From: Nitrosospira multiformis ATCC 25196
GTDB lineage: Bacteria > Pseudomonadota > Gammaproteobacteria > Burkholderiales > Nitrosomonadaceae
DNA length: 32,000 nt
Assembly: GCF_000196355.1 (NCBI RefSeq)
Contig: NC_007614.1
Coordinates: forward strand, 2,520,001 to 2,552,000
Reading direction: 5' to 3'
Translations under genes and position numbers: made by a program
Part shown: piece by piece, positions 2,142 to 18,245 of the stretch
Layout of the letters: each line of letters opens with the position of its first letter
Numbering within the stretch: position 1 is the stretch's first letter
The notes under the pieces: model-generated
Told to the model about the DNA's origin: nothing
What the model saw: only the letters and a program-made list of their open reading frames with translations
Database searches by the model: none

Positions 2142-2444
2142 TTATTCCCTGGCAGCAGGCTTGTGCTCCTTCCTGCCCGCCGTGCCGCCGCCGACAGTGA
2201 TATCCTTGCGTAGCTTCTGAACCGTGGCAGGACCAATGCCGCTTACGTTCTGCAAATCGTCCACGGACTTGAAAGACCCCTTCTTCTTGCGATAGTCGAT
2301 GATCGCCTTGGCTTTGGCCGGGCCGATTCCCTGAAGACTTTCCAGTTCGGCCTGGCTAGCGGTATTGATATTGACAGCCGCGAATGTCGCTCCGCTAAAT
2401 ACGAACAGCGTGACAAGAAGTAGAAACAACTTTTTCATAATCAT
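2142..2444 (-). CDS. comEA: ComEA-family helix-hairpin-helix DNA-binding/uptake protein, exported
   Basis: 100 aa with a signal peptide (MKKLFLLLVTLFVFSGATFA). The motifs VNINTASQAELESLQGIGPAKAKAIIDYR and LQNVSGIGPATVQKL form the tandem HhH pattern of ComEA. The start could be ATG 2444 or 2438. Confidence 0.85.
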   Translation of the reverse strand: MIMKKLFLLLVTLFVFSGATFAAVNINTASQAELESLQGIGPAKAKAIIDYRKKKGSFKSVDDLQNVSGIGPATVQKLRKDITVGGGTAGRKEHKPAARE

Positions 2445-2597
2445 CCATTAAGGTATGAGTTAAGGCTAAAGCGGGGTCATTGATAAATGCGCCGATGAAA
2501 GAAAGAGCGATATAGCTTCGTAAATATAACGTAACTGCTCGCTAAGTGGTAAGGCAAACGTTCCCTGAGAACATGGCGAGGAAGGTCGGTACTGTCC

Positions 2598-3554
2598 TTA
2601 AAACATCTCAACAGTGTATACCCATAGCCGATTGATGCCCGAACTCGTCTCTCGAGCATAAGTTACACATTCGGGAAGGATTAAGCTGACACGACTACGC
2701 GCACGTCCTTCGAGGATCCAGAAAATCGTAAATCCCAAAACTTGCACCTTTGTTGCAAGCGGTGACAGATATATATTTGCTCCTACTTCCTTACGATCAA
2801 TATCTCGTACAATCTCTTGGATCACCGCTGCAGTTGCAAAAGGATCATTTGCCGGAGCAAATCGTCTATTTGTCCTCCAATCATTGGATAACGCCACCTC
2901 ACCGCTTTCAGCGGCGCGTATCACGCTTTGTTGATACATATCAGGACTGAGCGAGGGAAATGCAAATATTGGGAACACAACAGCGTTGTCATGCGTGCTT
3001 GCTACTTCGTTGACTAGTCTATTGTCAAATCCTACCCCGAGCAGGAGATAATCTCGGCTTGTTGACGAGTTGCTACCTGCCATTCCACGTACGGGACGGA
3101 CTGTTCCGCTTGTAGTCGTGGTGAAATGGGTATCCTCATGCTTCATGTAATATTGTGGTTCTGAATACACTGCTTGAAATTCTCGAAGACCCAAATAAGC
3201 CAACTTAACTATTAAAAATGCTAGAACGTGCCGCATAAAGCCGGTAACATCAATGCATAGAGTCTTGTTTGTAAGGTCCCCCATTGCTGAAATCAATGAA
3301 TTTACTTGCCCAACCTCATCTAAATTGAGGGGACGTACAACCTCCCCACCGGATGGCTCCTCCAGTGGCAAATACCCATACTCAGGATGAATAAGCCAAA
3401 TTTTCTTATTCGCCCGAATTTGGTCAAAAACAACTCGGACACGATCACTTGAGTTAAATGCAGAAACGAAGATGTCAAAGAATGGTATTTCGTTTACGAT
3501 CCGGGTAGCGGAAACTGAACGTCGATAAAAACAAGCATAATCCATCCTGTTCAA
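2598..3554 (-). CDS. Unknown alpha/beta protein, last gene of the island operon; possible CARF-like Rossmannoid sensor domain at the N-terminus
   Basis: 318 aa with alternating hydrophobic-strand/helix pattern: FDIFVSAF, KIWLIHP, TLCIDVTGF, YLLLGVGF, AVVFPIFAF, NIYLSPLATK, VSLILPE. DVTGFMR (aa 102-108) fits the [DN]x[ST]xxx[RK] signature. The start is uncertain: TTG 3554 overlaps the upstream TGA (3551-3553), or ATG 3545. I recognise no catalytic motif. Confidence 0.72.
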   Translation of the reverse strand: MNRMDYACFYRRSVSATRIVNEIPFFDIFVSAFNSSDRVRVVFDQIRANKKIWLIHPEYGYLPLEEPSGGEVVRPLNLDEVGQVNSLISAMGDLTNKTLCIDVTGFMRHVLAFLIVKLAYLGLREFQAVYSEPQYYMKHEDTHFTTTTSGTVRPVRGMAGSNSSTSRDYLLLGVGFDNRLVNEVASTHDNAVVFPIFAFPSLSPDMYQQSVIRAAESGEVALSNDWRTNRRFAPANDPFATAAVIQEIVRDIDRKEVGANIYLSPLATKVQVLGFTIFWILEGRARSRVSLILPECVTYARETSSGINRLWVYTVEMF

Positions 3555-5566
3555 AACAATTCCGTTTGCCCAACTAGAGCTCGTGACTTGGAGAACGGGT
3601 TGTTCCAGCGGTACTCAAGCGCGCCTAATAGCATATCAAACTCCCTGCGACCATCTGGTTTAAAGATTGCATTTACTAATTCTCGTGACAGCGAAACATC
3701 TCCTCGACGCGCAATCGGCAGGCCCCATCTTGGGGCAAGTATAGGATTAATCTGTATCTTGCGATTGAGGGCTTGGCTATTTCTAGCAGGACGACCTTCA
3801 CTCAGTTCAAATAGAAATGATGAGTTTAATGCTGCGCGAAGGATAGTTCGAGCGGGCTCAGTAAGATATGAATCAGCAAAACTCACTACGGCCGGTGACA
3901 CTTCGGGAACATTCAGGGAATATCGTGCTGTACGAAGTAACTGAGCCAGCCTAGCTATGGACTCACGAACCACTTCCGTTTCGGTGCCGAGTATTACATC
4001 CTGCTCAAACACAAACCGGGCCGCTTCTAAAGCTGCCTCCGTTTGCCGATTGACAGATAACGGGCTACCTTTGATGAAATCTTCATTCCTGAATGCCGCA
4101 ATTGCATATGCGCGTTCTAGAATGATCAGGAGATTCCGAGGATTTCCGCAAGACATTCTCACAAAAGTGTCAAAACCAGCGTACGGAACACCGCGTGAAC
4201 GTTTGTAGTCTCTACACAGTTGTGCTACTAGATCTTGAGCGTAATGACCGTACGCTATCGTATACGAATCCTTTTTGCCGGCGACTCCGTCAAGAAACCT
4301 AACTGCTGACTCGCGGATCTCATTGGCAACGTCGCGTGCATCTGAAGGCCTAGAAGCTTTCTTACAGAAGCAAAGTATATTCAGCTTCTGGATTAATAGT
4401 GGAAATCCTTCCACCAAAGCTGTGAGTACGGCTGATACATTAAGATTGCCTCTGTCGTCGTTTTGACGCCATAAGGACAAAACGGTTTCAAAGGCTTGCA
4501 GATGAGTTTCTTGACCTTCTGTAATGAAGGACTTTAAGAAGGATTGATAGGCATTCCCCGATTCGACTTCAGCGAAGTGACGACTGGGATCAAAATCTCC
4601 CATTGAGCTACCGAGATCGTTCTCGGACAAGCCGACAGACGTTAATCTTTTGTAGACAAACTTTCTTGCAAACTCAGGATAACCTTTGAACGCTCTCAGT
4701 ATGTCGTCAAGATGTACAGTTTTGAACTCAGAACCTTCTCGATTCTCTTCACCGTCTGCCATAGTCGCATGGGTCTTCATGGCATAGAGTCTGCCACCCA
4801 CTCTAAAAGTAACACGTCCCTCCGCGTACCGAATGAAGCTATTTACGACTTGCTGCTGCTGCTTAGAGAAATTCTCTATCTCATCAAGAAGATAGATTAA
4901 TGAAAGTCCGCGGAGACGCGGATGCCAAACCTCGATACATTTCCGCAAATTTAAACATAGAGCACCAACCGAAAAGGGAATCCGTAGCTCCAGTGTTCCA
5001 ATAAATGCAGCATTGTTTACTCTTTCATCAATGTCAACTCGGATTCGTTGCACCCATGACTGAAACTTATCAACCGTTTGTAATGCCAGAACCTCTGGAT
5101 CTGAAACCACACGGCAAATTTCCTGCATAAAAGCTTTGTCGTCGAAAGATTCGTTTTTTGCAGATTGCCTAACATCAAGTATTGCATCTAAAACACTTTC
5201 GACTATTCGTAACTCTAAGTATGTAGCGAAAGCTTGCCGCCACTTTGCTGGCGTATCGCTGATCAACTCGAAGCGGGAGGCGTCAAGGCCGTTTGCACGA
5301 AGAAAAATGGCAAGAAACTTTTCCCTATTCAAAATCTCGATTCCATTTTGCTGTGGATTGCGGAGTCGAGTTGCTTTATAGGAGTAATAACGCAATATAT
5401 GTGTCTTACCAGAACCCTTGCCCCCTAGAATCAGTTTTGATAGTTGAGATTTAGGCTCGATGATTTGATTCATCGCCGCAGAACCTATTTCAACCCAGAG
5501 CGTATTGATCTGATCGTCTGTGTAGTCGGACGCCTTTAGCAATGCAAATGGATTTCCCTGTTTCAT
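3551..5566 (-). CDS. P-loop NTPase, 671 aa (AAA/ORC-Cdc6-like or STAND-like guess) with a long helical C-terminal region
   Basis: Walker A is GGKGSGKTH (aa 48-56, nt 5399-5425, verified by reverse translation). Walker B is LIYLLDEIEN (aa 223-232). The N-terminus begins NPFALLKA. About 400 aa of mostly helical sequence follow. ATG at 5566. Confidence 0.85.
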   Translation of the reverse strand: MKQGNPFALLKASDYTDDQINTLWVEIGSAAMNQIIEPKSQLSKLILGGKGSGKTHILRYYSYKATRLRNPQQNGIEILNREKFLAIFLRANGLDASRFELISDTPAKWRQAFATYLELRIVESVLDAILDVRQSAKNESFDDKAFMQEICRVVSDPEVLALQTVDKFQSWVQRIRVDIDERVNNAAFIGTLELRIPFSVGALCLNLRKCIEVWHPRLRGLSLIYLLDEIENFSKQQQQVVNSFIRYAEGRVTFRVGGRLYAMKTHATMADGEENREGSEFKTVHLDDILRAFKGYPEFARKFVYKRLTSVGLSENDLGSSMGDFDPSRHFAEVESGNAYQSFLKSFITEGQETHLQAFETVLSLWRQNDDRGNLNVSAVLTALVEGFPLLIQKLNILCFCKKASRPSDARDVANEIRESAVRFLDGVAGKKDSYTIAYGHYAQDLVAQLCRDYKRSRGVPYAGFDTFVRMSCGNPRNLLIILERAYAIAAFRNEDFIKGSPLSVNRQTEAALEAARFVFEQDVILGTETEVVRESIARLAQLLRTARYSLNVPEVSPAVVSFADSYLTEPARTILRAALNSSFLFELSEGRPARNSQALNRKIQINPILAPRWGLPIARRGDVSLSRELVNAIFKPDGRREFDMLLGALEYRWNNPFSKSRALVGQTELF

Positions 5567-5578
5567 CCTCGCCCTAAA

Positions 5579-6535
5579 TTAGTCATAGAACTTCTCATAC
5601 CGGACAAATACCGGATGCCAAGGAATGTTCTCGCCGTTATACCAAAAAATAGGCGGCGCATTGTCAGGAGTATTATGGCTGAATGCCAACAGCAATTGCC
5701 CATGCCTGTAGCCTGTAGGCCATTTGCGGTTCAGTTCCTTTCCATACCCTACCGCGATTTTTTTTAGTTGTTCTAACTTAAACCATGCTGGAGCGCTTCG
5801 GAAATAACGTGAATCTGAGGAAAAAGCCTTATATGAGTTATCTAGTTCGAATAGACAACTCACATGTGAGCCGAATAAAGCAGGCGAAGCCAATTTGGTC
5901 AATCCCGTTGTTGTTCCAAACAGGGAAATGAATCGCATTTCTACATTAGGACTTCCCTTTCGAATTAGGTTGAGATAAGGTTCCAAATACTCGGCCACCT
6001 GCGTACCGGAGCCAACGAGATCATCAAAAAAAACAAATCTCGTGACAGTAGGATCCTTTTGCCGATAACCCTGCTGATTGTTATCTCTGCATGGCTCAAA
6101 GGCGCTAGTGAAATCTGCGAAGAGATCTTTCTGTAGATTATTCACCTGCCGGAAGTAATACAATAAATGTGCTCCACTCTCGGCTGGGTTACCTATGCCA
6201 ACAAAACGAGTGGCCCGGAGCTCGGAGTGATACTGCTGGCGTACAAGCAAAAAATCCTTTGTTCCATTGAGATTACGGCGTATCCGCTGCAACATTGGCG
6301 ATTCAAAGTGATCTCGATAAATTGAGCGGAGCATTTCGCGAATTAGCCTCTTGTTAAAATACATGTACCTGCTCAATAAAAAAAGTACATACCGCTTCTC
6401 TTCGTCTCCGCTCTCGAAAGAGCCTTTAAAGTTACTGAGCCACATCTCAATATCAGCCCAATGAACTTCTCTTTCCCAGGCTTCCTGAACAAGGACTCGA
6501 ATTTTGTCCTCTAGCAGTGACATCTCGTCAAGCAC
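5579..6535 (-). CDS. Phosphoribosyltransferase-like (PRTase-fold) protein with an N-terminal helical extension
   Basis: 318 aa. FVFFDDLVGSGTQ (aa 167-179, nt 5999-6037, verified) matches the PRPP-binding loop pattern of type I PRTases: hydrophobic strand, two acidic residues, then a small/Thr-Gly-rich loop. GTG start at 6535 is preceded by GAGGGAG 6 nt upstream; an alternative ATG lies at 6523. Confidence 0.78.
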   Translation of the reverse strand: MLDEMSLLEDKIRVLVQEAWEREVHWADIEMWLSNFKGSFESGDEEKRYVLFLLSRYMYFNKRLIREMLRSIYRDHFESPMLQRIRRNLNGTKDFLLVRQQYHSELRATRFVGIGNPAESGAHLLYYFRQVNNLQKDLFADFTSAFEPCRDNNQQGYRQKDPTVTRFVFFDDLVGSGTQVAEYLEPYLNLIRKGSPNVEMRFISLFGTTTGLTKLASPALFGSHVSCLFELDNSYKAFSSDSRYFRSAPAWFKLEQLKKIAVGYGKELNRKWPTGYRHGQLLLAFSHNTPDNAPPIFWYNGENIPWHPVFVRYEKFYD

Positions 6536-6537
6536 GT

Positions 6538-7941
6538 TTAGCTCCCTCTATACAAACTCTTCGTGAAAACGAGAACACTTTCCCGTGAAATAATAGAAGC
6601 AGTCTTGTTTCTCTTTGTCATCAAGCCACGGGATTTTATGTGATCAATCAAATGCAGGGTTATCTCAAATCGAAGATCAGTTAACACTTCCTTCAAGTAT
6701 TCATCATTCCTCAAGGTTTCACCACAGACCTGATTATTTCCTACTACTACAATGATTGTTCCTCCGTCTTTGGTTACGCGCGCGACTTCCACCATTGCTT
6801 GCCGCAACTCTATCAAGTACGTCCTGGTTATTCGTTCCCTTGTTCTATTTTTTTGCCCAACCCGATCTAAAAGATTCTCGAAAGAACTTGAAAGACTTCC
6901 ATTCGATATTTGCCAAGATGCCGGCACATGCTCTCTCCCAATAGAGATACGTTCGAGATGTTTTAGTGTGTCTGGAGATGCATAGCCCAACCAGTTCAAT
7001 GAAAGACTGCTGGCACGAACATATTTTTGCGCACTTCCATAAGGCGGCGACGTAATCACCAAATCCACGCAATTGTCTTGAAGCTTTGTGCCTGAGACAG
7101 ACTCTCTGAGATCACGAGCATCACTACCGACGATTTTGGTTCGTGCCCGGCAACCGTTAGCAGCTCGATTAGTCTGCTGGATTCGTTGGATATTTGTGTC
7201 TACAGTTTTTTGGAACTCTGCAATCACGTTAACGTCTTGAAGCCATTCCAAGCGTTCGGAAATTATTTTAGAAGCTACGTTTCCAAGACTAGGTTTTATC
7301 CGTAGTCGCACTGGCACTGAAATGCGTGGATCAGCAAAACTGAGACGGCGTGCGGTCACTGATAAGCAAAGCTCAAAAAATTCCCGCTCGATATTTCTCG
7401 GCAATTCCCTAATTGCCCTCACAAGCTTTTCGAGGGCAATTTTAATTCTCGGCGAATACCAGAGATGATCGTTTATAACATGTATCGTTGGGGCGGTTCG
7501 AAAAGACTTTGCCCTACAACATATGCTCTTAGCAAGTTGTACCAAGACCGTCTCATTAAATGTAGTTGTCTTAACTTTAGCGATCAACAGTGCCAAGGGA
7601 TTTGCATCTGCTATTAGCGGTGTATGGCCAGCAAGAAACGCTTCAAGAGCGACTGTTCCCGATCCGCAAAATGGATCCAAAACCATCGCCTCCTTTCCAA
7701 CCAATGAACTACAACGTAAAAAAAAGTTGGCTATGTGTGGTAAAAGTTTCGCTGGGTACGGATGAAGTAGGTGAGAGTATTGGTCTCCAATCTTTACCCA
7801 ATCGACAAGCGAGCGAAAATCAACTTCAACCGGCTCGCCGGTAGTAATATATGCCGTTTTGAGCAGATTTAGCATTTCCGAAGTGTCTATCTTTTCTGGC
7901 ATCCTTTGAGAATACACTTCTTCTAATCCAGATAGATTCAC
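6538..7941 (-). CDS. DNA methyltransferase (amino-MTase, N4-cytosine or N6-adenine), motif order I then IV with a ~200-aa insert
   Basis: 467 aa. AdoMet motif I is VLDPFCGSGTVALEA (FCGSGT = aa 91-96, nt 7654-7671). Catalytic motif IV is ITSPPYG (SPPY = aa 298-301, nt 7039-7050, verified). RVTKDGGTIIVVVGN lies downstream. GTG start at 7941; the next in-frame ATG is at 7902. Confidence 0.88.
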   Translation of the reverse strand: MNLSGLEEVYSQRMPEKIDTSEMLNLLKTAYITTGEPVEVDFRSLVDWVKIGDQYSHLLHPYPAKLLPHIANFFLRCSSLVGKEAMVLDPFCGSGTVALEAFLAGHTPLIADANPLALLIAKVKTTTFNETVLVQLAKSICCRAKSFRTAPTIHVINDHLWYSPRIKIALEKLVRAIRELPRNIEREFFELCLSVTARRLSFADPRISVPVRLRIKPSLGNVASKIISERLEWLQDVNVIAEFQKTVDTNIQRIQQTNRAANGCRARTKIVGSDARDLRESVSGTKLQDNCVDLVITSPPYGSAQKYVRASSLSLNWLGYASPDTLKHLERISIGREHVPASWQISNGSLSSSFENLLDRVGQKNRTRERITRTYLIELRQAMVEVARVTKDGGTIIVVVGNNQVCGETLRNDEYLKEVLTDLRFEITLHLIDHIKSRGLMTKRNKTASIISRESVLVFTKSLYRGS

Positions 7942-7952
7942 AAATCTATCTG
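7929..7952. promoter_or_regulatory. Perfect 10-bp inverted repeat (CAGATAGATT-caca-AATCTATCTG) centred on the methyltransferase GTG start codon
   Basis: Read directly. Arms are 7929-7938 and 7943-7952, with spacer 7939-7942. The GTG start is the complement of 7939-7941. It could be a dimeric-protein operator or an mRNA hairpin occluding the start. Confidence 0.55.
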
Positions 7953-8184
7953 CCCATCAAATCCAACAATAAAGCCACCAAGAGAAGATCTCATTAACGA
8001 CTGGCATCAATAAGCTTCTCTTCTTAAAACTTCTTAATGGATGTACCAGAAAGCAGGGCATTGATAGTATTGGAATTGAACTTCCCGGATGGGAGACGGA
8101 TGTATTTATTAGGTCTTGAATTTTTCAGTTCTTTCACTCGTTTAGGCCGGAATAGCTTTTTCAAAGACCACGACTAGGAGAAAG

Positions 8185-8349
8185 ATGCATTGTGTTTTCA
8201 TCAACTTTTGCCCCAGATTGTTAGATTTTCATCCATCAAAACTGGTTAAGCTATGCAAAAAGTTCAATGCTTGTGTTCCGATCCAAACTCGCTGCACAAA
8301 TAATGTTTTTAGACGTATAAATACCTTTCTAAACCAAGACAGCAAGTAA
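8185..8349 (+). CDS. Candidate small Cys-rich basic protein (54 aa), below the track cut-off
   Basis: ATG 8185 is preceded by AGGAG (8176-8180, 4-nt spacer). Sequence: MHCVFINFCPRLLDFHPSKLVKLCKKFNACVPIQTRCTNNVFRRINTFLNQDSK, with TAA at 8347-8349. It ends 5 nt before the bidirectional terminator hairpin. No family recognised. Confidence 0.3.
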   Translation: MHCVFINFCPRLLDFHPSKLVKLCKKFNACVPIQTRCTNNVFRRINTFLNQDSK

Positions 8350-8354
8350 AAATT

Positions 8355-8387
8355 AAAACGGCGTAGGACTTGGGCCTACGCCGTTTT
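8355..8387. terminator. Bidirectional rho-independent terminator just downstream of ssb
   Basis: AAAACGGCGTAGG (8355-8367) and CCTACGCCGTTTT (8375-8387) form a 13-bp perfect stem with a 7-nt loop. A/T runs on both sides give a U-tract on either strand. It lies 22 nt after the ssb stop. Confidence 0.8.
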
Positions 8388-8409
8388 ATGATCGATTTAA
8401 TTAAGCTGT

Positions 8410-8868
8410 TCAGAACGGAATATCATCATCCATATCATCAAACCCGGTGCTGCTTCTGGCAGGCGCCCTGCCGCCGGATGAACTCGGCGCGAATCCGCCC
8501 TCTTCCCTCTCCGGAGCTTCATAGCTGGCTCCGCCGGGTTTGCTGCCAAGCATTTTCATATCGGTGGCGATGACATCGGTGGTATAGCGTTCGACACCCG
8601 ACTTGTCGGTCCATTTGCGCGTTTCGAGTCGTCCTTCGACATAGACGGAGCGTCCTTTCTTGAGGTATTCGCCTGCGATCTCAGCCAGCTTGCGGTAGAA
8701 GGTGACGCGATGCCACTCGGTTTTTTCCTGCTTTTCGCCGTTCTTGTCTTTCCAGGTCTCGGTGGTTGCCACGGTGATGTTCGTCACCGCGTCACCGTTC
8801 GGCATATAGCGCGTCTCGGGATCCTTGCCGAGGTTGCCGATGAGTATGACTTTGTTGACTGATGCCAT
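8410..8868 (-). CDS. ssb: Single-stranded DNA-binding protein
   Basis: 152 aa with an OB-fold N-terminus ([34 protein letters not shown]...WHRV), a Gly/Pro/Ser-rich linker and the acidic tail DDMDDDIPF. Confidence 0.97.
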
Positions 8869-10254
8869 TTATGCTTCCCCTCCAAGTAATTGAGCAACGC
8901 CCTGCTCATCAAAACCACGCATATCTACTTTCAGGTAAGCCACCCCTTCGCTCGCAAGCACCAGCGCCTCATGCACACCGGGCAGCGCCGCCAGTTGCCG
9001 CGAAAGCCCGTGGGCGGTGCCGGTATCCATTACCTGCACGTGGTACATCCTGGTACGAACAGCTGCGGGCGCCTTCATGGTAACGGCAAATATCAGCCAC
9101 AACATGAGAAGCGCCCCGCAGAATGCAAACAGTGCGGTACTTCCGTAATGCTGATAGAGATAGCCCCCGGCGCTGGCACCAATAAACGTACCCAGGAACT
9201 GGACACTGCTATAGACCCCGATGGCGGTGCCTTTTGCCCCTACGGGAGCGATCTTGGAAATGAGCGAAGGCAGCGTCGCTTCCAGCAGATTGAAGGCGGT
9301 GAAGAATACCAGCAGCGCACCCGCAGTGCCCCATATCGAATCGAATGTATAGGCCAGCAGGATCTGGCTTACCAGCAGCACAGCGACGGATATGACAAAC
9401 ACTTGCTTTAGCTTTGCCTTCTTTTCGCTATAGATGATCACTGGAATGATCAGCAGCATGGAAATGACCAGCGCGGGAAAATAGATTTGCCAGTGATGAT
9501 CCGCTGCCAGCCCTGCCTGCCGCAGCGATAGCGGTACCACCAGCCATAGGGCCATCAGTACGGCGTGCAATGCGAAGACACCAAAATCGAGGCGCAACAG
9601 TTCCGGATTTCGGAGGACATTAAAAATTCCCCCTGCGGACGCTTCCGTATCCGAATGGAACCGCCTGTCTGTCGGGTTGGGAACCACCCGCGAAACTACG
9701 ATCATCGCCAGCAGCACCAGCACCCCTGTCATGAAGAAAATTCCGGGCACGCCAATCATGCGGTTGAGCGACGGCGCAATGACCAGAGACAGCGCGAAGG
9801 TAGTTCCTATCGTCATGCCGATCGCCGCCATTGCCTTGGTGCGGTGTTCTTCGCGTGTGAGATCCGCGGCAAGCGCCATCACAGCCGCCGAAATCGCCCC
9901 TGCTCCCTGGATGACACGGCCAGCGATTACCCAGTAAATATCCGTTGCTGCGGCTGCGACAAAACTGCCCAGGGCGAACAGGAGCAGGCCGCCATAAATC
10001 ACCGGTTTGCGGCCGAAGCGATCAGACAGCCAGCCGAACGGAACCTGCAATATCGCCTGCGTCAACCCGTACGCGCCCAGTGCAATCCCGACCAGCGTGT
10101 AATTGTCGCCTCCCGGCAGATGTTCGGCGTAAAACGCGAATACCGGGAGAATGATGAACATTCCCAGCATGCGGAGGCCGTAAATACTCGCCAGGCCCGC
10201 GATCGCGCGTATCTCTGGGGGTGACAGTTTCTCGGAAGACGATGAGGGGGACAT
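8869..10254 (-). CDS. MFS transporter with a C-terminal ~60-aa ferredoxin-like (degenerate HMA-like) extension
   Basis: 461 aa with about 12 hydrophobic segments and the MFS loop motif [11 protein letters not shown]. The stop TAA 8869-8871 abuts the ssb ATG (TAAATG), and a GGAGG for ssb lies inside its 3' end. Confidence 0.9.
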
Positions 10255-10262
10255 GAATCAGA

Positions 10263-10296
10263 TTGGGAAAACGCGGAAACTTGAGTATATTAACAG
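10263..10296 (+). promoter_or_regulatory. Candidate uvrA promoter (TTGGGA-17 nt-TATATT) overlapped by a degenerate LexA/SOS-box-like site TTGAGTATATTAACAG
   Basis: -35 at 10263-10268 and -10 at 10286-10291. The 16-mer at 10281-10296 matches CTGT-N8-ACAG at 6 of 8 conserved positions. It lies ~70 nt upstream of the uvrA ATG, in the uvrA/ssb-operon divergent region where E. coli has an SOS box. Confidence 0.3.
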
Positions 10297-10366
10297 GTTT
10301 GGCCGGTTCTCAGGTAGCCTTGCCTCGGTGGACGAGCAGGCGCCGGACCGTCAGCGAAAGGAGTCA

Positions 10367-13201
10367 ATGGAACTCATCAAGATCCGCGGTGCGCGCACGC
10401 ACAACCTCAAAAACATCAACCTCGACTTGCCGCGCAACAAGCTTGTCGTCATTACGGGCCTGTCCGGCTCGGGCAAGTCTTCGCTGGCGTTCGACACGCT
10501 CTATGCGGAAGGCCAACGGCGTTATGTGGAATCGCTCTCAGCGTACGCCCGCCAGTTCCTGCAATTGATGGAAAAACCGGATGTCGATCTGATTGAAGGA
10601 TTATCGCCCGCCATAGCCATAGAGCAGAAGGCGACTTCCCATAACCCGCGTTCGACTGTCGGCACTGTCACTGAAATACATGATTACCTGCGCCTGCTTT
10701 TCGCACGGGTAGGAGATCCGCAGTGCCCCGATCATGGCATCACGCTGACTGTGCAGAGCGTTTCCCAGATGGTCGATCATGTGCTGCGACTGCCGCCGGA
10801 TACCCGGCTGATGATACTTGCTCCACTGGTAGTGGGGCGCAAGGGCGAGCAGGTGGAGTTGATCGATGAACTGCGCGCGCAGGGCTTCATCCGGCTGCGG
10901 ATCGACGGGAAAGTATACGAAATCGACGCCCTGCCCAAGCTGCAAAAAAACCAGAAGCATACGATCGAGGTGGTAATCGACAGGCTCAAGGTTTCACCGG
11001 ATTCGAAGCAGCGGTTGGCGGAATCATTCGAAACCGCCCTGCGCCACGCCGAGGGGCGCGCACTGGCGGTAGAGATGGATTCCGGGGCAGAGCATCTTTT
11101 TTCAGCCAGGTTCAGTTGCCCGATATGCAGCTATTCGCTGCCCGAACTCGAACCCCGTCTGTTTTCGTTCAACAACCCCATGGGCGCCTGCCCCAAATGC
11201 GATGGCCTGGGCAGAATCACCTTCTTCGATCCCAAACGGATCGTCGCGTTTCCGCATCTGTCACTGGCGGCCGGCGCCATCAAGGGATGGGACAGGCGCA
11301 ACCAGTTTTATCATCAATTACTGGCGAGCCTGGCCAGTCATTACGATTTTGATCTGGAAATACCTTTCGAGCAATTGAACAGCCATATTCAGGATCTCAT
11401 CCTGAATGGATCCGGCAATGAAAAAATCACGTTTTCGTATCTGAACGAAAACGGATCGAGAAATTATCGCAAGCATACGTTCGAGGGAATCCTTCCCAAC
11501 CTGGAACGGCGCTACAAGGAAACCGATTCAGTTACCGTACGCGAGGAACTGGCGAAATACCTGAATTCCCAGCTCTGCCCTGAATGTGCCGGAACCCGCT
11601 TGCGGCGGGAAGCTCGCCATGTGCATGTAGGCGGCATGGCAATATATGAAATCAACGCTTTGCCGCTGAAAGAAGCAAAGGTTTTTTTCGACCAGGTGAC
11701 GCTGACCGGGCATAAGCTTGCCATTGCAGAGAAGATCATCAAGGAAATCTCAAGCCGTATATCATTTCTCAACAATGTCGGACTGGACTACCTGTCGCTG
11801 GATCGCTCCGCCGATACCTTGTCCGGAGGGGAATCCCAGCGCATCCGGCTTGCCAGCCAGATCGGATCAGGTCTCACCGGTGTGATGTATGTGCTCGATG
11901 AGCCTTCCATCGGCCTGCACCAGCGGGACAACAGCCGCCTGCTGAAAACCCTCAAGAATCTGCGCGATCTCGGCAACAGCGTGATCGTGGTGGAACACGA
12001 TCAGGATGCAATACTGACCGCCGATCACGTGATAGACATGGGTCCGGGAGCCGGTGAGCATGGTGGAGCCATTATCGCTCAGGGTACGCCGGAAGCTATC
12101 CAGCGCGACGCCGGTTCCCTTACCGGAAAATACCTTTCGGGCGAATTGACCATAAGCACGCCCGAAAAACGCACCGAACCGAAAAATGACCGCTGGCTGC
12201 GGATTGAAGGCGCATCCGGAAACAACCTGAAAAACGTCACCCTGAACCTGCCCGTGGGATTGTTCGTTTGCGTTACCGGTGTATCCGGCTCGGGTAAATC
12301 CACTCTCATCAACGAAACGCTCTATCAAGCCGCTGCCCGGCATCTTTATGGCAGCGCAACAGAACCCGCTCCCTATCAGAATCTGGAAGGACTGGCGTTT
12401 TTCGACAAAGTGATCAGCGTGGACCAAAGCCCCATCGGACGCACGCCACGCTCGAATCCAGCCACTTATACCGGCTTGTTCACTCCGATCCGGGAGTTAT
12501 TTGCGGGTGTGCCGCAGGCGCGGGAACGCGGCTATGGACCGGGGCGGTTTTCGTTCAATGTGAAGGGGGGGCGTTGCGAAGCCTGCCAGGGTGACGGCAT
12601 GATCAAGGTGGAAATGCACTTTCTCCCCGATATCTATGTATCGTGCGATGTCTGCCACGGCAAGCGCTACAACCGCGAAACGCTGGAGATTCAATACAAG
12701 GGAAAAAACATTCATGAAATCCTGCAGATGACGGTAGAGCAGGCGCATGAATTTTTCAGTCCCGTACCCGTGGTGGCGCGCAAGCTCCAGACCTTGCTGG
12801 ATGTCGGCCTGGGTTACATCAGCCTGGGCCAATCGGCAACGACGCTTTCAGGCGGCGAAGCGCAACGGGTGAAACTGTCGCTGGAGCTCTCCAAACGGGA
12901 TACCGGACGTACGCTCTACATTCTGGATGAACCCACCACCGGGCTTCATTTCCAGGATATCGACCTCCTGCTCAAAGTGTTGCATCGATTGCGCGACCAT
13001 GGCAATACAGTGGTCGTGATCGAACACAACCTGGATGTGATCAAGACTGCGGACTGGATTATCGATCTCGGCCCCGAAGGCGGCGAAGGGGGCGGTGAAA
13101 TCATCGCACAGGGTCCGCCGGAGGAAATAGCAGCGAATGAAAGAAGCTTTACCGGGCATCACCTCAGGGGCATGCTGGAGAATCTTCACGCGACCGCCTG
13201 A
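10367..13201 (+). CDS. uvrA: Excinuclease ABC subunit A
   Basis: [44 protein letters not shown]..., two ABC modules ([14 protein letters not shown] signatures) and zinc-finger Cys clusters. I chose ATG 10367 with AAGGAG at 10358-10363. The track's 10253 start adds 38 non-conserved residues and overlaps the divergent gene. Confidence 0.97.
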
Positions 13202-13226
13202 ATGCATTGAGAGATCGAGGCGCGTG

Positions 13227-14582
13227 ATGAATGCTCGGGCACTCCTGCTCAACAGCTTCGAGGCCGCGCTCGCCGCAGCCGATCCGTTGCGTGTCGTATC
13301 CCCGCATCTTGCTTCCGTATCATCGTGCGCGCTTGCAGTCAAACAGCATGAAGGCTGCATTAGGGACCATATCAGGGGCCATGTCGAGGGACGAGCCCTG
13401 GTGGTAGGTGCAGGCAAGGCTGCGGCGGCAATGGCGCAGGCTGTGGAAACCCATTGGCCTCAAGAGATGCCTTTGAGCGGAATCGTACTCACCCGCTATG
13501 GTCACGGCCTGCCCCTCGAGCGAATCCGGTTGATAGAAGCAGGCCATCCGCTGCCCGACGAAAGCGGGGAGCAAGGGGCTCGTGCCATTCTGGCGGAAAT
13601 AGAAAAACTGGGAGCTGGCGATTTCCTGCTGTGCTTGCTGAGTGGGGGCGGCTCCAGTCTTCTGTCGGTACCGGTAACCGGCATATCGCTCAATGATCTC
13701 CGCGATGTCACTACCCAACTGCTGCGCAGCGGTGCAGCCATCCAGGAAATCAATACTGTACGAAAGCATCTCTCTGCGACAGCGGGCGGGCGATTGGCGG
13801 CTTTGAGCCGTGCGCCGGTATTGGCGCTGATCATTTCCGATGTGACAGGAGACGATCCGACCCATATTGCTTCCGGCCCCTGCGCACCTGATCCCACGAC
13901 GTTCTCCGATGCGCTCGCCATACTCGAACACTATAAAATCAATGCCTCGGCAGCCGTGACGGAAACGTTGCGTGCAGGAGTGGAAGGCAGGCTCAGGGAG
14001 ACGCCCAAACCAGGGGAGGCCGTTTTCGATCAAGTGGAAAACCGGGTGATTGCAACAGCGCATGCTTCACTCGTGGCAGCTGCAGAATATTTTTGTGCCC
14101 AAGGAATTCCAGCTGTAGTGCTGGGAGATTCCGTTACCGGGGAAGCACGCGAGGTGGCGAAGGTCTTCGCCGCGATGGCGAAGGAAGTGCGGCAATATGG
14201 GCGGCCGTGGAAGCGGCCGGTAGCCCTGATCTCAGGAGGCGAAACGACAGTCACATTGCGGGAAAATGAACAAGGATATAAGAAGGAGGGACGGGGGGGC
14301 CGCAATACCACGTTCCTGCTGTCGCTCGCTATCGAGCTGAACGGTGCCGCAAACATCTATGCGCTCGCATGCGATACCGATGGCATAGACGGTACTGAAA
14401 ACAATGCAGGCGCGCTCATCACCCCGGACTCCCTCAGGCGTGCCACCGATCAGCGCATGAACCCTTCATCCTTGCTGACCTGTAATAATGCCTATGCCTT
14501 CTTTGAAGCACTGGGCGATCTGGTCACGACCGGCCCGACCCGAACCAACGTCAACGACTACCGCGTCATACTGATTTTGTAA
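13227..14582 (+). CDS. MOFRL-family glycerate 2-kinase / hydroxypyruvate reductase-like protein
   Basis: VVGAGKAAAAMAQAVE, LLSGGGSSLL, ALISGGETTVTL and GRGGRNTTFLLSLA are the DUF4147+MOFRL patterns. ATG 13227 follows GAGG and avoids overlapping uvrA. Confidence 0.85.
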   Translation: MNARALLLNSFEAALAAADPLRVVSPHLASVSSCALAVKQHEGCIRDHIRGHVEGRALVVGAGKAAAAMAQAVETHWPQEMPLSGIVLTRYGHGLPLERIRLIEAGHPLPDESGEQGARAILAEIEKLGAGDFLLCLLSGGGSSLLSVPVTGISLNDLRDVTTQLLRSGAAIQEINTVRKHLSATAGGRLAALSRAPVLALIISDVTGDDPTHIASGPCAPDPTTFSDALAILEHYKINASAAVTETLRAGVEGRLRETPKPGEAVFDQVENRVIATAHASLVAAAEYFCAQGIPAVVLGDSVTGEAREVAKVFAAMAKEVRQYGRPWKRPVALISGGETTVTLRENEQGYKKEGRGGRNTTFLLSLAIELNGAANIYALACDTDGIDGTENNAGALITPDSLRRATDQRMNPSSLLTCNNAYAFFEALGDLVTTGPTRTNVNDYRVILIL

Positions 14583-14672
14583 ATCTTCGGCAGGAGGTCC
14601 GCATCCCTAGATGGCGCCGGAACCTCCTTTCGGCTTGATGATACCTATTGCGGAATCTTTCGCTGCTTGCAA

Positions 14673-14717
14673 ATGTCACAAAATCGCAATACTGTTTACA
14701 TATCATCGAAATATAAG
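14673..14717 (+). promoter_or_regulatory. Candidate Pho box plus -10 (TATAAG) upstream of phoB
   Basis: 11-bp-phased half-sites: TGTCACAAAAT (14674), CGCAATACTGT (14685, weak) and TTACATATCAT (14696). They resemble E. coli CTGTCAT/CTTACAT half-sites. TATAAG lies at 14712-14717, with no -35. Confidence 0.35.
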
Positions 14718-14764
14718 AAAAAATCAAAAACGGAGAAGATTCTGACGACAGAAGGAATGATCTA

Positions 14765-15469
14765 ATGGCAGCAACGATACTGGTGGTGGAAGATGAACCC
14801 GCGATCCAGGAGCTGATCTCATATAGTCTTCGGCAGGCCAAGCATACGGTTTCCTCGACAAAAAACGCAGAGGAAGCCATGAAAATCATCAATCATACGC
14901 TACCCGACCTGGTGCTCCTGGATTGGATGCTGCCCGGGATGAGTGGCGCCGATTTTGCCCGCATGCTGCGGCGCGCTGCCCGCACAAAGGATATTCCCAT
15001 TATTATGCTCACCGCCCGTGCGGACGAGAGCGACAAGGTGACCGGCCTGGAAAGCGGCGCCGACGATTACATTACCAAGCCTTTTTCGCCCCGGGAACTG
15101 CTGGCGAGAATCAAGGCCGTGCTACGGCGGCGCGCTCCCGAAGCCGCCGACGATGTTGTGGAGATCGGTGGACTGCGCCTGGATTCGGCCACCCATCGCG
15201 TCACTGCGAATGAGATTGAAGTCGTGCTCGGGCCCACCGAATTCCGCTTGCTGCACTATCTCATGACTCATTCCGAACGGGTACATAGCCGTTCCCAATT
15301 GCTCGATCAGGTATGGGGCGATCATGTATTTGTCGAGGACCGTACCGTGGATGTGCATATCCGCCGCCTGCGCAAGGCCCTCGAAAACGTCGACAAGGAT
15401 GGACTGGTGCAGACAGTGCGGGGCTCCGGCTATCGCCTTTCGGCAGGTCAAGCAGTGAACGCGGGATGA
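14765..15469 (+). CDS. phoB: Phosphate regulon response regulator (OmpR/PhoB family)
   Basis: Receiver domain (ILVVEDEPAI, DLVLLDWMLPGMSG, KPF) plus a winged-helix output (TEFRLLHYLM, VDVHIRRLRKAL, VRGSGYRL). It is followed by phoR. Confidence 0.92.
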   Translation: MAATILVVEDEPAIQELISYSLRQAKHTVSSTKNAEEAMKIINHTLPDLVLLDWMLPGMSGADFARMLRRAARTKDIPIIMLTARADESDKVTGLESGADDYITKPFSPRELLARIKAVLRRRAPEAADDVVEIGGLRLDSATHRVTANEIEVVLGPTEFRLLHYLMTHSERVHSRSQLLDQVWGDHVFVEDRTVDVHIRRLRKALENVDKDGLVQTVRGSGYRLSAGQAVNAG

Positions 15470-15509
15470 AAGCGGGAATGATCTGTTGTAATCGTTCCAA
15501 CTGACGTTC

Positions 15510-16811
15510 GTGTCCGGTTTCTGGGGGCATTTTGCCAATCTCGTACTGATTGCCGTTGTAAGCGGAGTACTGATGACTGTGTCCGGCGCAGCCGCGGCGC
15601 TGACATTTTATGTCGTTGTTCTGTTCCTGCTGGTCCTGCGCCACTCGCACAATCTGAAGCGCCTGGACCGCTGGCTTCGTAGTGAAGAAGCTGTGCTACC
15701 CGACAGCTCCGGCAGATGGGGAGATGTATTCGCGCGCCTGGCCCGGCTCATGCGCGATCAAAAACAAACCCACCAAAACCTCAGTTCCGCTCTGGAGCGC
15801 CTGCGGAGCGCCACCTCAGCCATGCCCGAGGGAGTGGTCATCCTCGATGAAATGGACCGCATCGAATGGTGCAATCCAGTGGCCGAAAAACATCTGGGCA
15901 TCAATGCCAGTCTCGATACCGGGCAGCATATCACGCATCTGATGCGTCAAACCCAGTTCGCGGAATATCTTGCCGCGCGGAATTACAAGGAACCCCTGGT
16001 GATCAAACAACCGCGGCAGCACGAGTTGACGCTCTCGCTGCAGTTCGTTCCTTATGGCGACAAGCAGAAACTGCTCCTCAGCCGTGATATAACCAAGCTT
16101 GAAAGAATCCAGACCATGCGCCGCGATTTTGTCGCCAACGTCTCGCATGAACTGCGCACGCCTTTGACCGTCATCGGTGGGTTTCTCGAAACGCTGTCGG
16201 ACGATAATCAACCCGATCCCGATACCCGCAAATGGGCATTGGAATTGATGAGCGAGCAGACGCGACGCATGCAAAGCCTGGTGGAGGATCTGTTGACTCT
16301 GTCGAGGCTCGAGAATACGGAAAACCAGGTGCGCGAGGAGCACGTCAACATACCGGAAATGTTGCGAACGCTGTATGAGGAAGCGAAATCCCTGAGTGGA
16401 GGACACCATCGCATCACGCTCGAGCTCGATACAACCACAAAACTCCTGGGCAACCTGTTTGACCTGCGCAGCGCCTTCATCAATCTGATCAGCAATGCCA
16501 TACGCTATACTCCTGATGGAGGGAATATAACGCTGCGCTGGGCAATTCAGGACGGGAAAGGTGTATTTTCGGTGCAGGACACGGGGATAGGGATTGAACC
16601 CGAACATATCTCGCGCCTGACGGAGCGTTTTTATCGCGTCGACCGTGGCCGATCGCGTGAAACCGGAGGCACCGGCCTCGGTCTTGCCATTGTCAAGCAC
16701 GTGCTCAGCGGTCACCAGGCGAAGCTGGAAATTACCAGCGAACCGGGCAAAGGCAGTCGCTTCAGCGCAGTGTTTCCGGCTACCCGGCTTCTGATACAGC
16801 AAGGTGAGTAA
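15510..16811 (+). CDS. phoR: Phosphate regulon sensor histidine kinase
   Basis: Two N-terminal TM helices, a PAS-like region, the H-box FVANVSHELRTPLT, and N/G boxes (LISNAIRYTP, DTGIGI, GGTGLGLAIVKH). GTG start at 15510. Confidence 0.92.
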   Translation: MSGFWGHFANLVLIAVVSGVLMTVSGAAAALTFYVVVLFLLVLRHSHNLKRLDRWLRSEEAVLPDSSGRWGDVFARLARLMRDQKQTHQNLSSALERLRSATSAMPEGVVILDEMDRIEWCNPVAEKHLGINASLDTGQHITHLMRQTQFAEYLAARNYKEPLVIKQPRQHELTLSLQFVPYGDKQKLLLSRDITKLERIQTMRRDFVANVSHELRTPLTVIGGFLETLSDDNQPDPDTRKWALELMSEQTRRMQSLVEDLLTLSRLENTENQVREEHVNIPEMLRTLYEEAKSLSGGHHRITLELDTTTKLLGNLFDLRSAFINLISNAIRYTPDGGNITLRWAIQDGKGVFSVQDTGIGIEPEHISRLTERFYRVDRGRSRETGGTGLGLAIVKHVLSGHQAKLEITSEPGKGSRFSAVFPATRLLIQQGE

Positions 16812-16933: not shown

Positions 16934-17533
16934 ATGAAGAGACGTACCGTTCCTATGTCCAGAACCCGGCCTGAACATCCCGACCTTACCGAGACCACCG
17001 TCAGCAGTCAGAAGGTTTTTGAAGGCGACCTCCTGCATGTCTATCAGGACCATGCACGCCTCCCAGACGGCAAAGTGAAAATACGCGAGTACATCGCCCA
17101 CCCTGGCGCGGTGGTCATTATCCCATTGCTCGACAATGGCGAACTGGTGCTGGAACGTCAGTTCCGCTACCCGCTGCATCGGGATTTTTACGAATTGCCC
17201 GCTGGAAAAATCGACTCCGGGGAGGATCCACTTGCATGCGCGCAACGGGAACTGCTGGAAGAAACCGGTTATACAGCGAAAAGCTGGCGTTATATCACTA
17301 CCCTGCATCCCTGCATCGGTTACTCGAATGAAAAACTGATCTACTATCTCGCACAGGAACTCACCTTTGAGGGGGCAAACCTCGATGATGGAGAATACCT
17401 GGAGATATTTACCCTGCCGCCGGCAGAAGCACTGGAATGGATAAAGGAAGGAAAAATTACCGACAATAAATCGGTGTCAGGTTTGTTCTGGGCGGAGAAG
17501 ATATTGAGAGGCGAGTGGGCAGTAAAGGAATAG
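16934..17533 (+). CDS. NUDIX hydrolase, ADP-ribose pyrophosphatase-like
   Basis: Nudix box GKIDSGEDPLACAQRELLEETGY. The N-terminal beta region (VFEGDLLHVYQDHARLPDGK) is as in NudF. The start could instead be the Met at 16955. Confidence 0.85.
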   Translation: MKRRTVPMSRTRPEHPDLTETTVSSQKVFEGDLLHVYQDHARLPDGKVKIREYIAHPGAVVIIPLLDNGELVLERQFRYPLHRDFYELPAGKIDSGEDPLACAQRELLEETGYTAKSWRYITTLHPCIGYSNEKLIYYLAQELTFEGANLDDGEYLEIFTLPPAEALEWIKEGKITDNKSVSGLFWAEKILRGEWAVKE

Positions 17534-17612
17534 AAGAGAAAAGTAGCAGAGATTGTACAAATCAGGTGGTTCGGCTGCCCAAAGCTTTTGGCCTAAAAAA
17601 CTTCGCCTGTCC

Positions 17613-18245
17613 CTATTGATCTGCGCGTGATCGCAGTCGCTGGGGCGTACAAAGTTTATTGAGCAGGGTAATGGCAGAGAACGTGTTGCTCCCACCGCGG
17701 CCTTTTCCTGCCTGGTCATGCACTCTGCTTATTTCCAGAGTATCTCCCTGTACCTGCGCACTTACAGTGTAGGCATCGAAACCGAAATCTTTACCGAAGT
17801 CGATCCAGTCGATGGGTAGAATAAACTCCGCTCCGTTGACTATACGCCTGGCATTCAAACCAGCAGGCAGATTACTCTCTTGTGGCGCTTTCAATACCTG
17901 GGGCAGGACAGTCTTATCGGACTGAAGCTCCGTTTCATACACCAGAACCTTATCGCCATTTTCTTTATTTATCGGAATGAGGAAAACATAGACTTTTCCA
18001 TGCAGTATACGCAGCAGCAAGTGATCCGCAACTTCCCCCTGCCCTCTTTCTCCCCTGGTCTTCGCCTGAAATACCAGATGATCATCCGGAGAAATATCGG
18101 TGGTCACAGATAGAATATCGAGCTCGGGAGACAACCCTTTGTCCATGAAAGATACGATCGTACGGGGATCGGCATCGATCTGCATGGCGGATGCAGTGAG
18201 AGAGAAGACCATCAGCAGTGGGAGCAGTACATTTGAGCGACTCAT
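17613..18245 (-). CDS. Exported hypothetical protein, translationally coupled to the SCO1-like gene
   Basis: 210 aa with signal peptide MSRSNVLLPLLMVFSLTASA. Its ATG overlaps the upstream TGA (ATGA at 18242-18245). No motif recognised. Confidence 0.6.
   Translation of the reverse strand: MSRSNVLLPLLMVFSLTASAMQIDADPRTIVSFMDKGLSPELDILSVTTDISPDDHLVFQAKTRGERGQGEVADHLLLRILHGKVYVFLIPINKENGDKVLVYETELQSDKTVLPQVLKAPQESNLPAGLNARRIVNGAEFILPIDWIDFGKDFGFDAYTVSAQVQGDTLEISRVHDQAGKGRGGSNTFSAITLLNKLCTPQRLRSRADQ

Follow-up and report, generated by a model that had tools for sequence, protein, structure and literature searches.

Phosphoribosyltransferases of the PRTase-CE family (PF24390), ATPases of the ORC-CDC6-like family (PF24389) and CARF proteins of the CARF6 group have been curated as parts of predicted conflict systems. 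PF24390 and PF24389 are consecutive Pfam accessions with conflict-system names, 'CE' meaning conflict effector as the Aravind group uses the term, and the protein names used by NCBI and UniRef derive from these family models. Here we analyse a cassette of four genes, encoding a DNA methyltransferase (methylase), a phosphoribosyltransferase (PRTase), an AAA+ ATPase and a CARF protein, in a stretch of 32,000 nucleotides of Nitrosospira multiformis ATCC 25196 (contig NC_007614.1, positions 2,520,001 to 2,552,000; hereafter the window). An earlier reading of the bare sequence (the original prediction) had proposed it as an undescribed methylation-linked conflict system. It is not undescribed, since PRTase-CE, ORC-CDC6-like and CARF6 are already curated families with conflict-system names, to which its proteins match over their full length. 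By its sequence the cassette is a typical member of a computationally catalogued kind, with the same gene order and coupling as every relative examined. The reading that we favour, and regard as fairly probable, is that of a self-contained mobile immune (inter-genomic conflict) system with a nucleotide-targeting PRTase, an AAA+ switch, a CARF sensor and a self-marking methylase.

PADLOC 2.0 holds no system model for the cassette. The papers that defined the families are reportedly Nicastro et al. 2023 and Makarova et al. 2020 (NAR). Our literature search, outside which the likeliest defining papers lie, retrieved no description of a system combining CARF, PRTase, ORC-like ATPase and methylase, and neither Makarova 2014 nor the 2026 BREX survey mentions the cassette.

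Comparison with described systems

The effectors of type III CRISPR-Cas (Csm6, Csx1, Can1/2, Card1 and Cam1) resemble the cassette in the CARF fold and signature, and in having a ligand sensor that controls a growth-arresting output. However, the CARF protein of the cassette appears to be a tandem without a fused effector, and the unit adds a methylase and an AAA+ ATPase. The window contains no CRISPR array, cas genes or cyclase, and none of these lies near 36 other loci; Cas10, Csm and Cmr are absent among 182 neighbours.

BREX type 1 also achieves methylation-linked discrimination in the absence of a nuclease, by coupling a methylase with an ATPase scaffold of the ORC/Cdc6 clade (BrxC). The cassette differs from it in having a PRTase and a CARF protein and in the size of its AAA+ ATPase, which is half that of BrxC. 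PglZ, BrxC and BrxL are not matched in PADLOC by any of the four proteins, and there is no BrxA or BrxB. The best 25 of 47 PADLOC matches of the methylase comprise 24 MTase_II models and mad2, PglX being absent among them. DrmA, DrmB and DrmC of DISARM are likewise without a match in PADLOC, and for MADS there are only partial and weak matches, to mad2 (1.3e-6, methylase core) and to mad8 (0.0027, P-loop of the ATPase only). As regards type II restriction-modification, the island contains no nuclease domain or cognate endonuclease, and the restriction endonuclease (REase) models of PADLOC match none of the four proteins. The original prediction was thus right to set the locus apart from BREX, DISARM and type I to III restriction-modification.

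PRTase proteins are known as toxic or effector components of retrons and of ShosTA. The cassette PRTase and the effector of type III-A retrons are members of one Pfam family, but the former is not fused to a winged helix-turn-helix (wHTH) and has other partner proteins; the island encodes no reverse transcriptase, and Rfam detects no msr/msd RNA in it. With ShosTA, in which a PRTase toxin accompanies a DprA-like protein, it shares the pairing of a PRTase effector with a Rossmann-type nucleotide-binding partner. RADAR, composed of the AAA+ ring RdrA and the adenosine deaminase RdrB, is similar in joining an AAA+ ATPase to an enzyme of free nucleotides, but the structural match is weak (template modelling score, TM, about 0.2), and the cassette has a methylase and a CARF protein and no deaminase. 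Finally, PUA-Calcineurin-CE-HAD also directs a conflict effector at nucleotide pools under a small-nucleotide sensor and involves DNA methylation, being triggered by Dam-derived m6-dAMP. Its sensor and effector folds are unrelated to those of the cassette, and it uses the Dam of the host and carries no methylase.

Organisation of the cassette

Four open reading frames (ORFs) on the minus strand fill the island (Table 1). They are arranged in the 5' to 3' order methylase, PRTase, ATPase and CARF, and their junctions, read directly, are of the operon type, as had been described. The methylase and the PRTase (AGC TAA ac GTG) are separated by 2 nt, with a GAGGGAG Shine-Dalgarno sequence upstream, and the PRTase and the ATPase (GAC TAA tttagggcgagg ATG) by 12 nt, while the TTG start of the CARF gene overlaps the TGA stop of the ATPase gene (TTT TGA). 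The NCBI annotation begins the CARF protein at an ATG 9 nt downstream of this TTG. The translations contain VLDPFCGSGT, ITSPPYGSAQKY, RFVFFDDLVGSGTQ, LGGKGSGKTH and IYLLDEIENF, which bears out the methylase, PRPP (phosphoribosyl pyrophosphate) loop and Walker A/B motifs quoted in the original prediction; the motif residues of the methylase, PRTase and ATPase are invariant or nearly so among 20-40 homologues. No family of nucleases, helicases, integrases or transposases is matched by any of the four proteins in Pfam, PADLOC or NCBIfam, in agreement with the earlier failure to recognise such motifs by eye.

Table 1. Positions of the features discussed, in the window and in related loci (L numbers)
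Locus	Feature	Position	Strand	Evidence or remark
Window	DNA amino-methyltransferase, N6_N4 type, 467 aa	6538..7941	minus	Pfam, PADLOC, PDB profile
Window	PRTase-CE, 318 aa, predicted effector	5579..6535	minus	Pfam PF24390, PADLOC
Window	ORC/Cdc6-like AAA+ ATPase, 671 aa	3551..5566	minus	Pfam PF24389
Window	CARF6-family protein, 318 aa (315 aa from ATG 3545)	2598..3554	minus	PADLOC, AF2 (AlphaFold2), Foldseek
Window	AT-rich non-coding leader, 412 nt, 5' of methylase	7942..8353	minus	presumed promoter/regulatory region
Window	ssb intrinsic terminator, right island edge	8354..8388	minus	inverted repeat, T-run
Window	spacer, 153 nt, CARF stop to comEA start, left island edge	2445..2597	.	sequence reading
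L065	triad with 5' methylase, K. pneumoniae IncFIB/IncFII plasmid NZ_CP070089.1	2801..7873		next to repA
L049	thyX (S. meliloti pCpl)	4715..5626		abuts cassette, same strand
L036	thyX	8541..9554		abuts cassette, same strand
L061	dUTPase (Moraxella)	4231..4896		abuts cassette, same strand
L067	dUTPase (Acinetobacter)	4401..5039		abuts cassette, same strand
L064	PRTase-CE protein, 527 aa (B. mycoides plasmid p507)	4857..6440		
L001	three co-oriented genes closely after CARF gene	13048..15672		
L041	three co-oriented genes closely after CARF gene	13054..15675		
L044	three co-oriented genes closely after CARF gene	12976..14617		

Conservation of the four genes

In a genome scan with the ATPase alignment, taking one genome per species, 39 loci were obtained, and collinearity was counted over loci not interrupted by a contig end. 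The four genes lie on one strand and in the same order in all 39 of the 39 loci, down to an ATPase identity of 25%, with tight or overlapping junctions throughout. The loci are spread over at least seven phyla, with Pseudomonadota (alpha, beta and gamma), Campylobacterota, Acidobacteriota, Bacteroidota, Verrucomicrobiota, Spirochaetota and Armatimonadota, and the lineages include Arcobacteraceae, Holophagaceae, three lineages of Bacteroidota, Spirochaetia and Chthonomonas. When the search is anchored on other genes the same records are found: in IMG/VR the CARF and PRTase anchors retrieve the same four contigs as the ATPase anchor, and in PLSDB one set of eight plasmids is matched by both the ATPase and the CARF protein. 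No conserved fifth gene was found in the neighbourhoods of the loci. The co-occurrence that the original prediction proposed to test is therefore observed, and the collinearity, far beyond chance, makes the four genes one functional unit. An orphan methylase that happens to stand beside unrelated cargo genes, for which adjacency is the sole argument, is refuted by the 39/39 collinearity across phyla, the coupled junctions and the reciprocal anchoring, and we give it practically no credence.

Each of the four activities appears from the sequences to be under selection, because the catalytic or ligand residues are intact family-wide in all four proteins. The co-variation that was also to be tested is less clear. 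Residual divergences are correlated between the ATPase insert and the part of the methylase that separates motif I from motif IV (r=0.38), and those of ATPase residues 481-510 both with CARF residues 151-180 (r=0.43) and with PRTase residues 31-60 (r=0.40). The best inter-protein pairs reach r = 0.37-0.43 with Mantel p of 5e-5 to 4.5e-4, over 1,170 comparisons and with residual phylogenetic structure, so that the co-variation, although compatible with physical contacts, is only suggestive of them.

The PRTase-CE protein

The PRTase matches PF24390 along the entire profile (positions 1-253 of 253; 2.5e-65, 221.3 bits, gathering cut-off 27). An N-terminal helical region of about 110 aa precedes the phosphoribosyltransferase core, in which the ribose-5-phosphate (PRPP) loop VFFDDLVGSGTQ is intact (V-F-F-D171-D172-L-V-G-S-G177-T-Q); D171, D172 and G177 are invariant among homologues. 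It is also matched by the PRTase_III-A models of PADLOC, made for the effector of type III-A retrons (1e-29). That 'III-A' is here a retron type is evident at L062, a type III-A retron locus where the PF24390 protein is a PRTase+wHTH adjoining a reverse transcriptase which matches RT_III-A at 2e-140. The PRTase-CE family numbers 265 clusters at 50% identity (E<=1e-30), and the best 150 of 2,609 matches are all standalone proteins, with no sensor fusion among them. A profile of the family has no solved relative among PDB sequences. An effector role is predicted for PRTase-CE.

A longer form of the protein, with about 240 extra C-terminal residues, is encoded on the B. mycoides plasmid p507 (L064, Table 1), where its gene adjoins one of the SMI1/KNR4 family. 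Members of the latter family are often immunity proteins of polymorphic toxins, and the context hints at a toxin-type use of the PRTase-CE domain.

The ORC/Cdc6-like ATPase

PF24389 is matched by the ATPase with 3.4e-132 and 442.5 bits (gathering cut-off 27) over profile positions 1-571 of 571, and NCBI and UniRef name the protein 'ORC-CDC6 family AAA ATPase'. Walker A (GKGSGKTH, K54) and Walker B (DEIEN, D228 and E229) are intact, with G49, G51, G53, K54, T55, D228 and E229 invariant, and a conserved basic region occupies the C-terminal part (about aa 540-626). The AF2 model is of moderate confidence (pLDDT, the predicted local distance difference test score, 76.8). It places a long variable helical insert (about aa 91-214) after strand 2 (84-90) and ahead of the Walker B strand (222-228), and shows a helical C-terminal half in which a winged helix is not resolved. 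Foldseek matches are weak but coherent (best E 3e-4, TM <=0.31) and comprise RdrA of RADAR at the top, archaeal Cdc6/Orc1 (prob 0.98), RFC and ORC. The ATPase is predicted to be a sensor, switch or scaffold.

In nr the entry for this protein (P0001, 640 aa) is given a start 31 codons too late: homologues show no variation from N5, P6 and F7 on, and a further assembly of the strain has the gene at its full 671 aa.

The CARF protein

The fourth protein had been left as an unknown Rossmannoid. It has no match in Pfam or NCBIfam but aligns with the PADLOC model PDLC01914 'CARF6--CARF_CARF_CARF' at 4.6e-142 (positions 2-310 of 311), and the CARF6 hidden Markov models fit the corresponding protein in every subtype of the system. 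Its AF2 model has a pLDDT of 90.3 and a predicted TM of 0.91. All Foldseek matches with prob >=0.97 (range 0.97-1.00, target-normalised TM up to 0.53) are CARF domains, namely those of Cam1, Csm6 from three species, Can2 and Card1. The sequence D102-x-T104-G-F-M-R108, directly after the core strand 99-102, corresponds to the CARF signature [DN]x[ST]xxx[RK], with D102, T104 and G105 invariant and R108 at least 90% conserved. It is therefore a CARF protein, and a role as sensor or regulator with a nucleotide ligand is predicted for it.

The model consists of two CARF-like alpha/beta lobes that share their topology (about aa 10-155 and 165-318), with no fused effector domain; the C-terminal lobe has a conserved PLxTKxQ loop of its own. 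This suggests a tandem, pseudo-dimeric CARF. Because alignment of the N-terminal with the C-terminal half by hhalign gives only E=0.03, the suggestion leans on the repeated topology of the model and on the PADLOC label. A profile of the CARF family matches no solved relative among PDB sequences.

The methylase

Pfam recognises N6_N4_Mtase (2.1e-11) and UPF0020 (2e-11) in the methylase, and the PADLOC MTase_II model PDLC03322 is collinear with it along the full length (1.4e-39). A profile of its family finds TTHA0409 (6.5e-13), an N4-cytosine methyltransferase (N4CMT, 5e-8), M.RsrI, M.PvuII and M.MboIIA in the PDB. These are DNA N4-cytosine and N6-adenine enzymes, and the matching segments follow in permuted order; judged by these alignments the protein is a circularly permuted DNA amino-methyltransferase. 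Motif I (DPFCGSGT, aa 89-96) and motif IV (TSPPY, aa 297-301) are both invariant, with D89, F91, G93, G95, S298, P299, P300 and Y301 invariant or nearly so. SPPY we take as a hint, not a decisive one, at an N4-cytosine target.

The variable target-recognition region lies at about aa 120-290, between the two motifs. In windows of 30 aa the identity falls there to 0.25-0.34 (aa 121-180 and 211-270) as compared with 0.57-0.62 in the catalytic blocks. This region and the helical insert of the ATPase (aa 121-180) are the fastest-evolving parts of the cassette.

Conserved triad and exchangeable methylase

The PRTase also matches six more distant plasmid loci. Among these loci and their relatives a PRTase-CE/ORC-CDC6-like/CARF6 triad, assigned by Pfam and PADLOC for all three proteins, is found with differing fourth components, and the triad is collinear in the variant loci L061, L063 and L065-L067. 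In Moraxella (L061) and Acinetobacter (L067) a dUTPase gene comes first, then the triad, and a gamma-class N6_Mtase stands at the 3' end. In Klebsiella IncF plasmids (L065) a gamma-class N6_Mtase precedes the triad at the 5' end. On Burkholderia and Paraburkholderia plasmids (L063, L066) the triad has no recognisable methylase and lies beside DarTG-like or YhcG/PDC-S02 genes. Between the gamma-class methylases and the methylase family of the window there is no detectable similarity. Since the methylase is thus unrelated, moved or absent in sister subfamilies, the triad, by these comparisons, would be the machine, its PRTase, ATPase and CARF protein forming the conserved core, and methylation a recurrent but exchangeable module, much as in systems that resemble restriction-modification. 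The original prediction had made the methylase the defining part, which does not hold across the subfamilies. In the N. multiformis subtype a permuted N6_N4 methylase is encoded first and is obligatorily coupled to the triad.

In independent lineages the cassette is directly adjoined by genes of the dTMP (thymidine monophosphate) pathway, encoded on its own strand (Table 1). In one locus thyX overlaps the methylase start from upstream and in another it follows the CARF gene; the dUTPase_2 gene of the Moraxella and Acinetobacter subtype is immediately upstream of the PRTase gene. These neighbours may point to the nucleotide pool touched by the effector, and hint at an involvement of deoxyuridine or thymidine nucleotides. 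They are also what might be expected of a pathway of DNA hypermodification, in which the methylase and a PRTase-like transferase would act on DNA with no part in immunity, and both a methylase and an enzyme of transferase fold are indeed present. However, no known modification pathway employs a CARF sensor or an AAA+ switch, retrons have a member of the PRTase family as effector, the methylase is exchangeable or absent, and no DNA enzyme of glycosylase or transglycosylase type is encoded. We therefore regard hypermodification as very improbable.

The L067 record (CAKLQF020000018.1) is labelled 'Acinetobacter phage MD-2021a', and the cassette in it is surrounded by the housekeeping genes efp, cstA and tdcB with an adjoining tRNA-Val; the record would seem to be a contig of a bacterial chromosome rather than the genome of a phage.

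Carriage on mobile elements

Three of the IMG/VR contigs are real prophages, in which the cassette adjoins either endolysin, terminase and portal genes or tail genes, and the B. vietnamiensis copy lies within an integrase-bounded island. Plasmid copies are found in rhizobia, Moraxella, Burkholderia and Klebsiella. In PLSDB the Klebsiella CARF6 subfamily is present on 128 plasmids of Klebsiella, the majority conjugative; the search with it returned 146 PLSDB plasmid records overall, 129 conjugative, and a cassette of this type is also present in four E. coli transconjugants. Wherever the annotation was checked, for example in these transconjugants, each of the three partners carries the name 'hypothetical protein'. 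Carriage by prophages, plasmids and an integrase island, together with homology to the effector of type III-A retrons, makes a conflict or defence role the best reading, as had been proposed.

It could be argued from the same carriage that the cassette serves as an addiction or stabilisation module of mobile elements, acting by post-segregational killing as restriction-modification does, with anti-phage activity secondary or absent. Copies are frequent on conjugative plasmids beside replication genes and on prophages and islands, a methylase combined with a toxic effector resembles selfish restriction-modification systems, and decayed copies occur on rhizobial plasmids. Against this, many chromosomal copies, that of the window included, stand among housekeeping genes with no mobility genes near. 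We find addiction improbable as the primary function, and it would be compatible with a role in defence.

The intact 665-aa ATPase ORF of the Klebsiella locus L065 is absent from the PLSDB gene table. In the Rhizobium plasmids NZ_CP140809.1, NZ_CP018229.1 and NZ_CP140849.1 the matches to the ATPase gene fall into 2-3 pieces, which span 3.7 kb in one of the records; this suggests frameshifts or an insertion in decaying cassettes. In the Burkholderia and Paraburkholderia copies L001, L041 and L044 the three genes that follow CARF (Table 1) encode proteins of about 290, 240 and 351 aa, the last with a PurM-like AIRS/AIRS_C domain. They could be a lineage-specific accessory module or merely a neighbouring system.

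Proposed mechanism

The immune reading draws on the gene identities, the intact motifs, co-inheritance, mobile carriage, the homology to a retron effector and the swappable methylases, and we infer the functional steps as follows. The methylase would mark the host genome at a sequence motif. The AAA+ ATPase would act as an ATP-dependent sensor, switch or scaffold, probably facing DNA, comparable to BrxC in BREX and RdrA in RADAR. The CARF protein would bind a small ligand derived from a nucleotide and gate the complex. PRTase-CE would be the output enzyme, acting on nucleotides that bear ribose-5-phosphate, its chemistry most likely running in the direction of cleavage or exchange of the N-glycosidic bond. 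Depletion or corruption of the nucleotide pool would then arrest phage or plasmid replication in a manner resembling abortive infection. Of the self-marking methylase and large NTPase that the original prediction had placed at the centre, both are present, but the identity of the CARF protein moves the logic towards the sensing of a nucleotide ligand coupled to a nucleotide-targeting effector.

Several observations weigh against this reading. Methylation cannot be essential to the core mechanism, since L063 and L066 have no recognisable methylase. The ORC/Cdc6 assignment of the ATPase comes from the Pfam model while structural matches are weak, and a profile of the ATPase family has no relative among PDB sequences. 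The literature search yielded no experimental work on the cassette. Its location in defence islands, earlier put forward for testing, is borne out in part: the neighbours include type I REases or restriction subunits, a type IV REase, DRT reverse transcriptases, MkoC, SoFic, DarTG-like and PDC-S02 genes, integrases, transposases and Tn7-like genes, but the enrichment is modest, with defence genes making up only about 6% of immediate neighbours, and many flanks, those in the window included, are housekeeping genes. The CARF role is the weakest link of the model, because no cyclase that could make the ligand is encoded in or near any cassette; neither Cas10 nor a CD-NTase or other cyclase was found in the cassette, the window or the neighbours. 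Lastly, PRTases classically synthesise nucleotides, and the enzyme could be a maker of a signal and not a destroyer.

The lack of a cyclase would be explained if the danger signal were derived from the methylome. The methylase would then load host DNA with a modified base, not for self-protection; degradation of the chromosome by a phage would release methylated mononucleotides, which the tandem CARF would sense, switching on PRTase-CE with the ATPase as scaffold. Such a scheme accounts for a CARF sensor without a cyclase and for the retention of a methylase though there is no nuclease. It has a precedent in PUA-Calcineurin-CE-HAD with its m6-dAMP trigger, and an asymmetric tandem CARF pocket could fit a small ligand that is not symmetric. 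However, triad variants without a methylase exist, and a fast-evolving target-recognition region is more typical of discrimination between self and non-self motifs. To our knowledge, moreover, the characterised CARF ligands are all cyclic or linear oligoadenylates. We consider a methylome-derived signal unlikely.

The synthetic nature of classic PRTases leads to another proposal, that the PRTase makes a phosphoribosyl-derived messenger from PRPP for which CARF is the receptor, while the ATPase and methylase form an output like that of BREX, by which unmethylated DNA is kept from replicating. In its favour are the intact PRPP loop and the prediction that PRTases of the Ter system make a signalling nucleotide; CARF would also be given a source of ligand, and BREX functions nuclease-free around a methylase and an ATPase of the ORC/Cdc6 clade. 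On the other hand, PRTase-CE is classed as a conflict effector by the Pfam curators, its family provides the terminal effector of type III-A retrons and is fused in toxin-like contexts, and where the methylase is missing (L063, L066) no other possible effector is left. Synthesis of a messenger by the PRTase seems to us quite unlikely.

In either form the cassette would be a cyclase-independent CARF pathway, sensing methylated mononucleotides from its own mark or a phosphoribosyl messenger made by the PRTase. We hold such a pathway to be doubtful, though worth considering. If true, either form would represent a new class of CARF ligand and a new link between an epigenetic mark and immunity that acts on the nucleotide pool. 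What is understood of CARF domains comes almost wholly from receptors for cyclic oligoadenylates made by Cas10, and here a major CARF clade, CARF6, is tied to a CRISPR-independent operon that lacks a cyclase and usually has a methylase.

For the immune reading as for these alternatives, the ligand of CARF and the substrate of the PRTase are the points of most interest. They would test CARF signalling beyond cyclic oligoadenylates, and the substrate would define effectors of the PRTase type, with relevance to type III-A retrons and ShosTA. Working out both would also give clinically important plasmids a further function, in defence or addiction. As a subject for experiment the mechanism is attractive, and the system is not exotic, being present in prophages and on Klebsiella plasmids; the value of the N. 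multiformis copy is that of a clean, compact and intact example in a cultured organism, not of a new discovery.

The island and its flanks

The island lies between comEA (2142-2444, minus strand) and ssb (8410-8868, minus strand). As noted originally, it is richer in AT than both flanks, the GC content of 500-nt windows being 0.418-0.478 over 2501-8500 and 0.52-0.60 on both sides, and this low-GC stretch is a horizontally acquired insertion. The terminator at its right edge has a 14-bp stem of 100% complementarity, a 7-nt loop and a T-run. Flanking direct repeats, a tRNA or an integrase that would mark an attachment site were not found at the island. In an empty-site comparison, every assembly with an identical SSB was of the same strain and had the island. 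The operon promoter is presumed, from the position upstream of the methylase, to be in the 412-nt leader, although a scan of its minus strand for the sigma-70 consensus gave no match; a scan of leader and island with Rfam found no family. The ORFs in the leader are all short (<=54 aa) and without support.

Other dips in GC (0.47-0.48) occur in the window at 17501-18000, 22001-22500 and 30501-31000 and are much shorter than the island. Beyond ssb, the longest ORF of uvrA (10253-13201, plus strand) begins 2 nt within a divergent ORF for an MFS transporter (8869-10254, minus strand). The conserved N-terminus of UvrA starts 38 codons into this ORF, and the true start is therefore probably near 10367.

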